In this document: piece by piece, positions 37,250 to 43,159 of the stretch
Position numbering within the stretch: position 1 is the stretch's first letter
How the letters are laid out: each line of letters opens with the position of its first letter
Position numbers and translations under genes: made by a program
DNA from: Escherichia coli
GTDB lineage: Bacteria; Pseudomonadota; Gammaproteobacteria; Enterobacterales; Enterobacteriaceae
Direction: 5' to 3' (one strand)
NCBI RefSeq assembly: GCF_045037415.1
Contig: NZ_CP173438.1
Length of the DNA stretch: 64,000 nt
The notes under the pieces: generated by a model
What the model was told of the DNA's origin: nothing
The model's database searches: none
Seen by the model: the letters and a program-made list of their open reading frames with translations, nothing else

Positions 37250-39586
37250 ATGAAGCAAATTCGTCTGCTGGCGCAGTATTATGTTGACCTGATGATGAAG
37301 TTAGGTCTGGTGCGCTTCTCAATGTTGCTGGCGCTGGCCCTCGTCGTTCTTGCCATTGTGGTACAAATGGCGGTAACCATGGTGCTGCATGGTCAGGTCG
37401 AAAGCATTGATGTTATTCGTTCTATCTTCTTTGGTTTGCTGATTACGCCGTGGGCGGTCTACTTTCTATCGGTGGTCGTCGAGCAACTGGAGGAGTCACG
37501 ACAACGTCTGTCACGACTGGTGCAAAAACTGGAGGAGATGCGCGAGCGCGATTTGAGCCTCAACGTTCAGTTAAAAGATAATATTGCCCAGCTAAATCAG
37601 GAAATCGCCGTTCGTGAAAAAGCGGAAGCAGAACTGCAGGAAACCTTCGGCCAACTGAAAATTGAAATCAAAGAGCGCGAAGAGACACAAATTCAGCTCG
37701 AGCAGCAATCCTCATTCTTACGTTCCTTCCTTGACGCTTCACCCGACCTGGTTTTTTATCGTAACGAAGATAAAGAGTTTTCCGGCTGTAACCGCGCGAT
37801 GGAGCTGCTGACCGGAAAAAGCGAAAAACAACTGGTTCACCTGAAACCTGCTGATGTTTACTCACCAGAAGCCGCTGCGAAAGTCATTGAAACCGATGAA
37901 AAAGTGTTCCGTCATAATGTGTCACTGACCTATGAGCAGTGGCTGGATTATCCCGACGGACGCAAAGCCTGCTTTGAAATCCGTAAAGTGCCGTACTACG
38001 ACCGCGTGGGTAAACGTCACGGTTTGATGGGCTTTGGTCGCGACATTACCGAGCGTAAGCGGTATCAGGATGCGCTTGAACGCGCCAGCCGCGACAAAAC
38101 GACGTTTATCTCCACCATCAGTCACGAATTGCGTACACCGCTGAACGGTATCGTCGGCCTGAGCCGCATTCTGCTGGATACTGAACTCACCGCCGAGCAG
38201 GAAAAATATCTCAAAACCATCCATGTTTCGGCTGTCACGCTGGGGAATATCTTCAACGATATTATCGACATGGATAAGATGGAACGGCGCAAGGTCCAGC
38301 TTGATAATCAGCCGGTTGATTTCACCAGCTTCCTTGCCGATCTGGAAAATCTCTCCGCATTGCAGGCGCAACAAAAAGGATTGCGCTTTAATCTGGAGCC
38401 GACGCTGCCATTACCGCATCAGGTCATTACCGACGGGACGCGTTTACGGCAGATCTTGTGGAACCTCATCAGTAACGCCGTCAAATTCACTCAGCAAGGC
38501 CAGGTTACCGTGCGCGTGCGCTACGATGAAGGCGATATGCTGCATTTTGAAGTGGAAGACTCTGGTATCGGCATTCCGCAGGATGAGCTGGATAAAATCT
38601 TCGCCATGTATTACCAGGTGAAAGACAGTCATGGCGGTAAACCTGCCACCGGCACCGGTATTGGTCTGGCCGTTTCTCGTCGTCTGGCGAAAAATATGGG
38701 CGGCGATATTACGGTTACCAGCGAACAGGGCAAAGGTTCAACCTTTACGTTGACGATCCACGCACCGTCGGTAGCAGAAGAGGTTGATGATGCGTTTGAT
38801 GAAGACGATATGCCTTTACCGGCGCTGAATGTGCTGCTGGTGGAAGACATTGAACTGAACGTGATTGTCGCGCGTTCTGTGCTGGAAAAATTAGGTAACA
38901 GCGTTGATGTCGCCATGACCGGCAAGGCGGCGCTGGAGATGTTTAAACCGGGCGAATACGACCTGGTATTGCTGGATATTCAGTTGCCAGATATGACCGG
39001 GCTGGATATCTCTCGTGAACTGACGAAGCGTTATCCGCGCGAGGATTTACCGCCGCTGGTGGCCTTAACCGCTAACGTGCTGAAAGACAAGCAAGAGTAC
39101 CTCAATGCTGGAATGGATGATGTGCTGAGTAAGCCGCTTTCTGTTCCGGCGCTAACCGCGATGATCAAGAAATTCTGGGATACCCAGGATGATGAGGAGA
39201 GTACGGTGACGACAGAAGAGAACAGTAAATCAGAAGCATTGCTCGATATTCCCATGCTGGAACAGTATCTCGAACTTGTAGGACCGAAGCTGATCACCGA
39301 CGGGTTAGCGGTGTTTGAGAGAATGATGCCGGGCTATGTCAGCGTGCTGGAGTCGAATCTGACGGCGCAGGATAAAAAAGGCATTGTTGAGGAAGGGCAT
39401 AAAATTAAAGGTGCGGCGGGGTCAGTGGGGTTACGCCATCTGCAACAGCTGGGTCAGCAAATTCAGTCTCCTGACCTTCCCGCCTGGGAAGATAACGTCG
39501 GTGAATGGATTGAAGAGATGAAAGAAGAGTGGCGTCACGACGTAGAAGTACTGAAAGCGTGGGTGGCAAAAGCCACTAAAAAATGA
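37250..39586 (+). CDS. arcB: Aerobic respiration control sensor kinase ArcB
   Basis: 778-aa ORF with HisKA H-box (ISTISHELRTPLNGI), receiver and HPt domains. Confidence 0.95.
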   Translation: MKQIRLLAQYYVDLMMKLGLVRFSMLLALALVVLAIVVQMAVTMVLHGQVESIDVIRSIFFGLLITPWAVYFLSVVVEQLEESRQRLSRLVQKLEEMRERDLSLNVQLKDNIAQLNQEIAVREKAEAELQETFGQLKIEIKEREETQIQLEQQSSFLRSFLDASPDLVFYRNEDKEFSGCNRAMELLTGKSEKQLVHLKPADVYSPEAAAKVIETDEKVFRHNVSLTYEQWLDYPDGRKACFEIRKVPYYDRVGKRHGLMGFGRDITERKRYQDALERASRDKTTFISTISHELRTPLNGIVGLSRILLDTELTAEQEKYLKTIHVSAVTLGNIFNDIIDMDKMERRKVQLDNQPVDFTSFLADLENLSALQAQQKGLRFNLEPTLPLPHQVITDGTRLRQILWNLISNAVKFTQQGQVTVRVRYDEGDMLHFEVEDSGIGIPQDELDKIFAMYYQVKDSHGGKPATGTGIGLAVSRRLAKNMGGDITVTSEQGKGSTFTLTIHAPSVAEEVDDAFDEDDMPLPALNVLLVEDIELNVIVARSVLEKLGNSVDVAMTGKAALEMFKPGEYDLVLLDIQLPDMTGLDISRELTKRYPREDLPPLVALTANVLKDKQEYLNAGMDDVLSKPLSVPALTAMIKKFWDTQDDEESTVTTEENSKSEALLDIPMLEQYLELVGPKLITDGLAVFERMMPGYVSVLESNLTAQDKKGIVEEGHKIKGAAGSVGLRHLQQLGQQIQSPDLPAWEDNVGEWIEEMKEEWRHDVEVLKAWVAKATKK

Positions 39587-39698
39587 CCCCGGCTAGACCG
39601 GGGTGCGCGAATACTGCGCCAACACCAGGGAAATCTTGGCTGCGCCGTAAATTATTATGATGAGTTACAAGGGCACAGCACTGTTTTTCAGGCCGCAC
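39578..39698 (-). ncRNA. arcZ: Hfq-dependent small RNA ArcZ (SraH/RyhA)
   Basis: Minus-strand sequence GUGCGGCCUGAAAAACAGUGCUGUGCCC...CCCUGGUGUUGGCGCAGUAUUCGCGCACCCCGGUCUAGCCGGGGUCAUUUUUU; terminator hairpin ccccggctagaccgggg overlaps the arcB stop codon; convergent with arcB. Confidence 0.75.
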
Positions 39699-39815
39699 GC
39701 AGTTAAGATAGCAAAACTTAAATGATTTGTTACATGAATCAGTTAAATGTGTGATGCGTAGCATTTTTATTAAAAAAATTAATGTGTTTCAGTCAATTGC
39801 GAAAGGAAGATCACA

Positions 39816-40469
39816 ATGAAGAAAATTGGCGTAATTCTGAGCGGATGCGGCGTCTATGACGGTTCTGAAATTCATGAAGCGGTATTGACGTTGTTAGCTA
39901 TTTCACGCAGCGGTGCGCAGGCGGTTTGCTTTGCACCGGATAAGCAGCAGGTTGATGTTATCAACCATTTAACTGGTGAAGCGATGACGGAAACGCGCAA
40001 TGTGCTGATTGAAGCGGCACGAATAACGCGCGGTGAAATCCGTCCTCTGGCCCAGGCCGATGCCGCTGAACTGGATGCGTTGATTGTGCCGGGGGGTTTT
40101 GGCGCGGCGAAGAATTTAAGCAATTTTGCCAGTCTTGGTAGCGAATGCACCGTTGACCGTGAATTAAAGGCGCTGGCACAAGCGATGCATCAGGCCGGAA
40201 AACCGCTTGGTTTTATGTGTATTGCACCGGCGATACTGCCGAAAATTTTCGATTTCCCGCTACGTTTGACCATCGGTACTGATATCGATACCGCAGAAGT
40301 GCTGGAAGAGATGGGCGCGGAGCATGTGCCGTGTCCTGTCGATGATATCGTGGTTGATGAAGACAATAAGATTGTCACCACCCCGGCATATATGCTGGCG
40401 CAGAACATTGCAGAAGCGGCGAGCGGCATTGATAAGCTGGTTTCCCGCGTGCTGGTTCTGGCTGAATGA
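39816..40469 (+). CDS. elbB: DJ-1/PfpI-family glyoxalase ElbB
   Basis: 217-aa [26 protein letters not shown]... Confidence 0.9.
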
Positions 40470-41194
40470 GTAAAAGCCGCTTAACGGTGTTTAGTTTCGT
40501 TCGCCGTTTTCTTCTGCGGTTAATGGTTGTCCTCGCCATTTTCTGGGGCGGGGGCATCGCGTTGTTTAGCGTTGCGCCTGTTCCTTTCTCAGCGGTAATG
40601 GTCGAGCGGCAAGTCAGCGCCTGGCTGCATGGCAATTTTCGTTACGTGGCACATTCTGACTGGGTCAGTATGGATCAAATCTCGCCGTGGATGGGACTGG
40701 CGGTGATTGCCGCAGAAGATCAGAAATTTCCTGAGCACTGGGGCTTTGATGTCGCTTCCATTGAGCAAGCCCTGGCGCACAACGAGCGCAATGAAAACCG
40801 TATTCGCGGTGCTTCAACGATTTCTCAGCAGACAGCCAAAAATCTCTTTTTATGGGATGGGCGTAGCTGGGTTCGAAAAGGGCTGGAAGCCGGATTAACG
40901 CTGGGGATAGAAACAGTCTGGAGCAAAAAGCGTATCCTGACGGTTTACCTGAATATCGCCGAATTTGGCGACGGTGTGTTTGGCGTCGAAGCTGCGGCAC
41001 AACGTTATTTCCACAAACCCGCGAGCAAACTTACCCGGTCGGAAGCTGCATTACTGGCAGCTGTATTACCTAATCCACTTCGTTTCAAAGTCTCCGCGCC
41101 ATCGGGCTATGTGCGTAGCCGTCAGGCGTGGATTTTACGGCAGATGTATCAGTTAGGCGGTGAGCCGTTTATGCAACAACACCAGCTTGATTAA
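40466..41194 (+). CDS. mtgA: Monofunctional peptidoglycan glycosyltransferase
   Basis: 242-aa ORF with N-terminal TM and transglycosylase motifs ([21 protein letters not shown]); overlaps the elbB stop. Confidence 0.9.
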
Positions 41195-41823
41195 GCTTCG
41201 CGCGAAGTGAGGGCCAGCGTTTTGCTCTCACGAGGTTGCAGATCTTTCTGCAGGGCAATAGCCAGCGCCGGTTGGGCGATAAATCGTTTCCATAACCGCT
41301 CTTGCTTACGCAGACAACACCACTTCGACCAGGTCGCCAGTGGAATCAATGTGCTTTCACCAATGTTGTCGCAGACGACGGGGATAACCTCTGACTCACT
41401 GATGCGGTGACAGAGGATATTCTGCGGCTTCAGCGACATCGTCACGATACGGTTATCCTGCAAATAACGCTTCAGCTGTTTCAGTAACTGGCGCAGTTGT
41501 GCAATGTCTTCTTCGTAACGGCATTGTTCTGCAAATTCGGTCAGCGTAATGGAAGGCTTGCCGTCGAAATCGGCAATCACATCGTAGACATAACCGGTTC
41601 CGCAATCCGTCTCAACGGTACCGTGATAGCGCGGTATTCCACTCCAGTCTTTTAACCGGCGACCAAGATGCGCGTAGTACTTTAACTCACGGCGGATCTC
41701 TTTATCGCCACCATCGCCACGATGGTAGACAATCTTGATACAGCGTTGGGCATCTTCCGGATGCGCATAACATTTCCGATGTCTTCCGGTGCCCAGGGGA
41801 CTTTGTTCAGATAAGCGAATCAT
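41191..41823 (-). CDS. yrbL: PhoP-regulated protein YrbL
   Basis: 210-aa [36 protein letters not shown]...; stop codon overlaps the mtgA stop (TTAA). Confidence 0.85.
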
Positions 41824-41873
41824 GCCATCTCCTGGAAATATTTTCTGACGATCTCCAGTATGGTCGATTAACT

Positions 41874-41890
41874 TAAACGAAATCTAAACA
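41874..41890 (-). promoter_or_regulatory. PhoP box (direct hexamer repeat) in the yrbL promoter
   Basis: Minus-strand TGTTTA-gattt-CGTTTA matches (T/G)GTTTA-N5-(T/G)GTTTA; 51-67 bp upstream of the yrbL ATG. Confidence 0.6.
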
Positions 41891-42035
41891 ATGCTTCTTA
41901 AGGTTTTCTTAAGGTTCTTCTGAAAGTAAAAAGCGCACGAAATGTACAATCGACGTTGATTGATAACGATTTCAGTACGCGCTTTTCTTATTGCCGGGGG
42001 AGCTTGAAGGGATTTGAATGTCAAAGTGATGAAGA

Positions 42036-42308
42036 TTAATCTTCATCAAAACCAGAGTTAAAGAGGGCGATAACGGCGGCCAGTGCTTCCTCTTCCTGTG
42101 GACCGGTCGCTTCAACTTCAATCTGCCGTCCTTTGGCAGAATCCAACATCAGCAGCGCAATAACGCTGTTGGCTTCAGCCTCGGTGCCTTCGTCATTACG
42201 TAACAGCACTTCAGCGTCAAAACCCTGCATTAATTCAAACAGCTTCATTGCAGGCCGGGCATGCATGCCCAGCTTGTTTGTAATTTCAACAGTTTGCTTG
42301 ACGGTCAT
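42036..42308 (-). CDS. npr: Nitrogen-PTS phosphocarrier NPr
   Basis: 90-aa HPr-like [29 protein letters not shown]. Confidence 0.9.
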
Positions 42309-43159
42309 GGTTTACGTTTTTCCAGCGTCCGATGGCGTGACTGGACGTTTTTACCGCGCGAGCGGAAGTAGTCTGCCAGTTGCTCTGCAATATACACCGA
42401 ACGGTGCTTCCCGCCGGTACAACCAATGGCGACCGTCAGGTAGCTACGGTTGTTGGTTTCCAGCATAGGTAACCATAGCTCAAGATAGCTTCGCGTCTGG
42501 TAGATAAAATTGTGTACTTCTGTGTGGCGGTCGAGGAACGCGGCGACAGGTTTATCAAGACCTGTCATTGGACGCAGTTTCGGATCCCAGTGTGGGTTCG
42601 GCAAGAAGCGCACGTCAAAGACGTAATCTGCATCGATAGGGATACCGTGTTTGAAGCCGAAAGACTCAAAGACCATGGTCAGTTCACGTTCACGTTTACC
42701 CAACAGACGGGTACGCAGCATTTCTGCCAGCTCGTGAACGGACATTTCTGAGGTATCGACAATCAGATCCGCTCGCGAACGCAGAGGCTCCAGCAAATCG
42801 CTTTCTTTGTCGATAGCACTTTCCAGCGACAGGTTTTTGCTGGAAAGCGGATGCAGTCGGCGCGTGTCACTGTAACGACGAATTAAGGTATTACGGTCGG
42901 CATCCAGGAACAGTAGTTGCGGTGAGAAAGCGTCAGGCAGGTTACTCATCGCCTGTTCGAATATTTCTGGTGACTCCGGCATATTACGAACATCAATGCT
43001 GACGGCGGCAGAAATCTCTCGATCGGCCAGAGTTCGAGCCAGATCGGGTAACAACACTACGGGAAGGTTATCCACGCAGTAAAAACCCATATCTTCCAGC
43101 GCACGCAGGGCGACAGATTTACCTGAACCTGAACGTCCGCTGACGATCATCAGTACCAT
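42305..43159 (-). CDS. rapZ: RNase adaptor protein RapZ
   Basis: 284-aa ORF with Walker A GRSGSGKS. Confidence 0.93.

Follow-up and report, generated by a model that had tools for sequence, protein, structure and literature searches.

Convergent genes that overlap at their 3′ ends are a known feature of prokaryotic genomes. According to Lillo and Krakauer (2007, PMC2174442) the commonest overlap length in prokaryotes is 4 bp, the four tetramers TTAA, TTAG, CTAA and CTAG allow opposed stop codons to interlock, and a rho-independent terminator of genes that overlap convergently has to be located within a coding region. The excludome assembled with ExcludonFinder from strand-specific RNA-seq coverage (Sanmartin et al., NAR 2025, PMC12288877) covers the locus described here and follows the same idea: its list of 165 convergent excludons, each detected in no fewer than 50% of 58 RNA-seq sets of E. 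coli MG1655, includes yrbL-mtgA. The pair is listed there without locus-specific analysis, i.e. without overlap length, 3′ ends or a test for reciprocal expression, and the main text holds no locus-level dsRNA or RNase III data for it. Bidirectional terminators with programmed head-on collisions of RNA polymerases (Wang, Watters, Ju, Liu 2022, bioRxiv 10.1101/2022.10.23.513370) likewise concern convergent genes whose polymerases must meet, but in those systems an intergenic stem-loop sets the collision site, whereas mtgA/yrbL has neither intergenic DNA nor a significant or conserved stem-loop. In Salmonella enterica the same two genes are found in the same convergent orientation and with similar C-termini of both proteins; the difference is a spacer between the stop codons. 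Given the excludon listing and the work of Lillo and Krakauer, both the observation at this locus and its immediate consequence are already in the literature, as is the general phenomenon of excludons and convergent overlaps.

The window, a stretch of 64,000 nt of Escherichia coli DNA, reads ATTAAGCTTC at positions 41190-41199. On the + strand mtgA ends with CAG CTT GAT TAA, and on the minus strand yrbL ends with CGC GAA GCT TAA. The two coding sequences have 4 nt in common and the two stop codons 2 nt (Table 1). An identical 4-nt overlap is annotated by RefSeq in every E. coli record inspected. The geometry is that described by Lillo and Krakauer, of which mtgA/yrbL is one instance without any difference in kind: open reading frame ends and RefSeq place both stops in an interlocked TTAA, and the C-termini are native as judged from equivalog matches above cut-off and from conservation across genera. 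The preliminary description had reported overlapping TTAA stops for these two genes, and sequence, open reading frame list and RefSeq agree with it; the gene names and coordinates it used are likewise correct by profile matches, open reading frame list and RefSeq. The overlap is thus real and of a known kind, and the exact pair is already catalogued.

Table 1 Features at and around the mtgA/yrbL junction. Positions are those of the window
Feature	Position	Strand	Basis and remarks
elbB	39816..40469	+	NF008747 ElbB, 357 bits; upstream of mtgA
mtgA, monofunctional peptidoglycan glycosyltransferase, 242 aa	40466..41194	+	TIGR02070, PF00912, RefSeq name
TTAA tetramer with both stops	41191..41194	mtgA TAA 41192-41194 (+), yrbL TAA 41193-41191 (-)	Sequence, open reading frame ends, RefSeq
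yrbL, PhoP regulatory network protein YrbL, 210 aa	41191..41823	-	NF007671, PF10707, RefSeq name
Two small hairpins in the mtgA 3′ extension, inside yrbL codons	41207-41231, 41236-41253	+	z -1.46, -0.57; terminator role unsupported
PhoP box, direct repeat TGTTTA-N5-CGTTTA = TGTTTAGATTTCGTTTA	41890-41874	-	Pattern match, 1 mismatch; 51 nt upstream of yrbL start
Long imperfect hairpin AAAAGCGCG...CGUGCGCUUUUU with U-run, npr-yrbL spacer, after npr	41928..41987	-	-30.4 kcal/mol, z = -3.61

Both products could be assigned with confidence. MtgA scores 290 bits against the TIGR02070 equivalog (cut-off 183) and reaches an E value of 7.9e-54 with PF00912 (Transgly), while YrbL scores 399 bits against NF007671 (cut-off 227) and 2e-67 with PF10707; the curated family cut-offs are passed and the families matched over their full length. 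Since the TIGR02070 and Pfam domain matches stop short of the final 11 residues of MtgA and the final 25 of YrbL, we weighed whether one of the reading frames truly ends elsewhere, in which case the overlap would be an annotation artefact and not biological. We found no support for such an artefact. The NF007671 profile covers residues 1-210 of the 210 residues of YrbL, and both stop codons are unambiguous. Moreover, the C-termini (...GGESFMxxHxLx before the stop of MtgA, ...LxLxSREA before that of YrbL) keep their length and sequence across genera. The full-length NF007671 match and the conserved C-termini led us to reject an artefact, the probability of which is practically negligible.

A junction of this kind is not rare in E. 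coli. Among the 10 convergent junctions of the window, with long open reading frames as gene proxies, mtgA/yrbL is the sole overlap and the others have gaps of 40-558 nt. For E. coli SK1144 we additionally counted, by eye, the intact annotated CDS junctions of convergent type in five stretches of 50 kb each (250 kb in total) and arrived at 25. Seven of them overlap or have a spacer of at most 12 nt, namely the overlaps ygeA/lysR (14 nt), pdeR/ymiD (19 nt), hypT/iraD (8 nt) and two hypothetical genes (95 nt), and the short spacers lysA/galR (6 nt), yegI/yegD (12 nt) and yjiJ/kptA (12 nt). A second convergent overlap of exactly 4 nt was absent from this 250-kb sample. According to these counts, an intergenic terminator would not fit into roughly one in four convergent junctions. 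The overlap is no statistical anomaly.

Within the species the junction is nearly universal: a 404-nt junction probe found matches of at least 95% identity in 5425 of 5426 complete E. coli genomes. For comparison across species, a YrbL alignment scan of species-representative genomes gave 52 loci, 29 of which have a convergently oriented mtgA immediately downstream of yrbL. A 4-nt overlap is present in 15 of these 29 (TTAA in 11, TTAG in 2, CTAA in 2), comprising six Escherichia lineages, one C. amalonaticus, Pseudocitrobacter, Superficieibacter, Intestinirhabdus, Siccibacter turicensis and a MAG. Six have a spacer of 1-7 nt (Citrobacter sp. NCU1, C. amalonaticus ku-bf3, C. sedlakii, two Pluralibacter, Siccibacter colletis), four a 26-nt overlap (the Pseudescherichia group and C. 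koseri, where the gene may be frameshifted), and four a spacer of 47-104 nt (two Salmonella subspecies, C. amalonaticus S646, Cedecea). The genes thus overlap or lie within 7 nt of each other in 25 of 29 species representatives from about ten genera, a tightness that could reflect selection rather than inertia. The sequence ATTAAGCTT is invariant in 10 sequences of Escherichia, Citrobacter and Pseudocitrobacter. The last mtgA codon of these genera is NAT, with a free first base that gives D, N, Y or H; that only the first base of this last codon is free is the expected consequence of the shared stop bases.

The stop-to-stop spacer of Salmonella measures 74 nt (subsp. diarizonae) or 83 nt (subsp. 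arizonae). The Salmonella spacers carry inverted CTTATCAGGCC/GGCCGGATAAG units, which resemble REP elements. A canonical terminator was not found in the Salmonella yrbL-mtgA spacer. An intergenic region of 65 bp between yrbL and mtgA, given for another Salmonella strain (PMC3261920), is in agreement with these spacers. In Salmonella, C. amalonaticus S646 and Cedecea the spacer is present and the C-termini of both proteins are kept; as their length is unchanged in Salmonella, the insertion there lies precisely between the two stops. In Citrobacter sp. R56 (locus L010, 3634-6075) two genes are inserted directly downstream of yrbL in place of mtgA, so the junction can accept insertions. To judge from these sequences, the overlap is dispensable, and the junction is an old and compact one that persists where nothing has inserted and tolerates splitting. 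The two genes inserted in Citrobacter sp. R56 code for a 312-aa protein that looks secreted and a 462-aa protein that looks like an MFS-type sugar-phosphate transporter, and at locus L009 no mtgA lies in the 3 kb that follow yrbL either.

A terminator scan of both strands detected no terminator-like site closer than about 220 nt to the junction. Its nearest calls are at 40956 (+ strand, inside mtgA) and at the terminator of the small RNA ArcZ (39604-39586). RNA folds 3′ of each stop, compared with shuffled sequence, gave z = -1.46, -1.10, -0.57 and +0.44 for four segments, none of them significant. Furthermore, the entropy of synonymous codons in the last 20, 40 and 60 codons of mtgA and yrbL is not reduced in 28 taxa (P = 0.10-0.71). 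We had considered whether the 3′ coding ends also carry a conserved, overprinted element, and these entropy profiles rule it out. A permissive Rfam scan of 39400-42400 returned ArcZ only, 1.5 kb from the junction. Scan, folds and synonymous sites thus agree that a bidirectional intrinsic terminator, i.e. a GC-rich hairpin with A-tract and U-tract, is lacking.

Terminators embedded in the last codons of the partner gene might nevertheless end both transcripts within tens of nucleotides, and the antisense overlap would then be minimal and inconsequential. The candidates are the two + strand hairpins just 3′ of the mtgA stop (Table 1). The authors of ExcludonFinder reported overlapping terminators predicted by TransTermHP at 146 of the 165 convergent excludons in general (PMC12288877), and a stem-loop aids the positioning of head-on polymerase collisions (bioRxiv 10.1101/2022.10.23.513370), both of which would fit such a role. 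At this locus, however, neither hairpin is followed by a U-tract and the scan calls neither of them. Their folds are no better than those of shuffled sequence, and the 3′ side of yrbL is essentially unstructured (z = +0.44). In addition, the synonymous sites are unconstrained, and the hairpin sequence 3′ of the mtgA stop differs among Escherichia species. With no hit in the consensus scan and four non-significant folds of the 3′ flanks, embedded terminators were set aside as a very unlikely explanation.

As there is no intergenic DNA and no nearby intrinsic terminator, each transcript must by geometry enter the partner gene in antisense orientation. This is what the preliminary description had claimed, together with the lack of an intergenic terminator; terminator scan and fold tests bear out the latter, and the antisense read-in, which follows from the geometry, agrees with the excludon listing (PMC12288877). 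Between about 275 and 350 nt into the 3′ extension of yrbL, at 40840-40917, the transcript would contain a C-rich and G-poor patch (27 C vs 11 G in 78 nt), and by base composition this patch is compatible with a Rho loading site.

On the + strand, the TGA of elbB overlaps the ATG of mtgA in an ATGA at 40466-40469 (sequence reading). Co-directional ATGA overlaps of 4 nt are a classic arrangement and are associated with translational coupling. The overlap suggests an elbB-mtgA operon, which is the probable source of the + strand transcription through the junction. A literature search for the transcription unit of mtgA and elbB, or for Rho mapping at the locus, yielded nothing useful. With regard to its neighbours, mtgA bears a 4-nt overlap at each of its two ends.

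On the minus strand, yrbL is preceded by a direct repeat of the type (T/G)GTTTA-N5-(T/G)GTTTA, the hallmark of the PhoP regulon, with one mismatch. In Shigella the yrbL promoter has a predicted PhoP box, TGTTTAggtttTGTTTA, and a fragment carrying this promoter was shifted by phosphorylated PhoP in EMSA (PMC5775216). Indeed, deletion of phoPQ in Shigella flexneri lowered yrbL to a mutant/wild-type ratio of 0.02, a change of about 50-fold (PMC5775216). PhoP regulation of yrbL, as assumed in the preliminary description, is thus upheld by the PhoP box and by the Shigella expression and EMSA data. Further upstream, the spacer between npr and yrbL contains a long hairpin (Table 1), and only one of 200 shuffles folds as well. 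The simple terminator scan missed it because its loop is long. It probably terminates the rpoN-hpf-ptsN-rapZ-npr operon and insulates yrbL. If it shields yrbL in this way, minus-strand transcription through the junction would be mainly driven by PhoP.

We regard it as quite likely that the locus is an ordinary, maximally compacted tail-to-tail junction of unrelated transcription units, at which the transcript overlap is real and the interference probably weak and incidental. The units would be elbB-mtgA on the + strand and a monocistronic, PhoP-activated yrbL on the minus strand. The TTAA interlock is the deepest overlap that costs each protein only the third base of its last codon; being nearly free of cost to both proteins, such an overlap could arise and persist without selection for the overlap itself. 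Each RNA polymerase would run into the coding region of the partner. The antisense tail is presumably untranslated, accessible to Rho after the ribosome has left at the stop codon, and most likely ended in a Rho-dependent manner, with head-on encounters of polymerases and 3′ trimming as further probable contributors. Mutual interference is then expected to be weak and incidental and not a dedicated regulatory device.

The pair might instead act as a functional excludon, in which PhoP-driven transcription of yrbL at low Mg2+ runs antisense through mtgA and elbB and lowers their expression, with the reverse effect also possible. Polymerase collision and cleavage of the RNA duplex by RNase III would be the mechanism, and envelope-stress signalling would be coupled to a peptidoglycan glycosyltransferase. 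Several of the above results are in line with this, i.e. the entry among the 165 convergent excludons (PMC12288877), the place of yrbL among the most strongly PhoP-dependent genes (ratio 0.02, PMC5775216), the lack of room for a terminator at the junction of 25 of the 29 species representatives, and scan and folds that reveal no terminator to limit read-through. For overlapping coding sequences, however, geometry makes an excludon call almost certain as soon as both genes are expressed. The tight pairs galR-lysA, lysR-ygeA, yegD-yegI, kptA-yjiJ and ymiD-pdeR are also in the excludon list; with five of the seven tight pairs of the SK1144 sample included, the list mostly tracks tight spacing. 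Moreover, neither 3′ end shows extra synonymous constraint. As to expression, the lists of genes changed at least 2-fold in the Shigella phoPQ deletion strain, as given for two growth phases in the main text and the supplements inspected, do not include mtgA; these are microarray lists defined by a threshold (PMC5775216). Expression of both mtgA and yrbL decreased in one transcriptome of Salmonella in co-culture, a result that is anecdotal and comes from a strain that carries the spacer. Taken as a whole, we consider a functional excludon unlikely. Selection of the tight junction as an antisense switch, by which PhoP activation (low Mg2+, antimicrobial peptides) lowers elbB-mtgA and adjusts glycan-strand synthesis under envelope stress, appears highly improbable. 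The mutual interference of mtgA and yrbL that had been proposed as a potential effect is a possibility and is unsupported: what little evidence there is speaks against a large effect and is compatible with a modest one.

An ordinary compact junction matters little in itself. It provides a clear textbook example of the tightest packing of two convergent genes and shows that many E. coli genes manage without an intrinsic terminator. If PhoP-induced antisense transcription measurably lowered mtgA, this would be one small link from Mg2+ and antimicrobial-peptide signalling to peptidoglycan synthesis; the evidence at present does not favour this.

The ArcZ sRNA is located at 39591-39698 on the minus strand (Rfam RF00081, 120.8 bits, E 1.9e-28), just past the arcB stop (39586) and on the opposite strand, with its terminator hairpin at 39604-39586. 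The 3′ end of ArcZ abuts that of arcB and thus forms a second convergent, terminator-sharing junction in the window.

A pause element in wide use for E. coli RNA polymerase, the 'yrbL consensus elemental pause element' (G-10 Y-1 G+1), also derives from yrbL (PMC11260103). The sense strand of yrbL contains two matches to GN6TGCG, GACGGATTGCG and GCACAACTGCG (41601-41611 and 41492-41502, minus strand), which are candidates for the published pause. Later papers on the pause did not give its sequence, and a sequence search returned nothing relevant. The strict pause motif GGN6TGYG has three matches on the + strand, antisense to yrbL. An enrichment of pause motifs in antisense orientation as an aid to Rho was considered and dropped, since the relaxed motif has a background of 2.1 per kb and strand and is matched twice on the sense strand as well.

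The junction probe hit 5426 places in the 5425 E. coli genomes, one genome having a second copy on a plasmid. The 54 nt at 41166-41219 are polymorphic: 1084 genomes are at least 99% identical, 3552 differ by 1-2 bases, and about 790 E. coli genomes lack an exact 28-nt word. The window has the allele CTT GAT (Leu-Asp), other strains have CTG GAT or CTG AAT, and TTAA is constant in all sequences aligned. In the laboratory strain E. coli K-12 ER2796 (NZ_CP009644.1; locus L002, 875-2126) an IS5 element lies beside a truncated mtgA, of which the last 141 nt are left and which is annotated as a pseudogene; the unrelated yhcE and a DUF1120 gene are on the other side of the IS5/mtgA remnant. This strain has lost arcB, elbB and most of mtgA through an IS5-associated deletion or rearrangement, with the TTAA junction and yrbL intact.

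YrbL homologues of 28-57% identity occur in Sutterella, Parasutterella, Desulfosarcina, Selenomonadales, Veillonellaceae, Sulfurimonas and assorted Gammaproteobacteria. None of these homologues (loci L034-L041, L044-L047, L051-L054) adjoins mtgA. Their scattered occurrence is suggestive of horizontal transfer of the gene. Several database relatives of YrbL also match the protein-kinase family PF00069. A contig of 420 nt from the Bacteroidota species Tannerella forsythia (ATCC 43037, contig135, locus L031) encodes residues 1-129 of YrbL with 99% identity to E. coli and is almost certainly E. coli contamination of the assembly.
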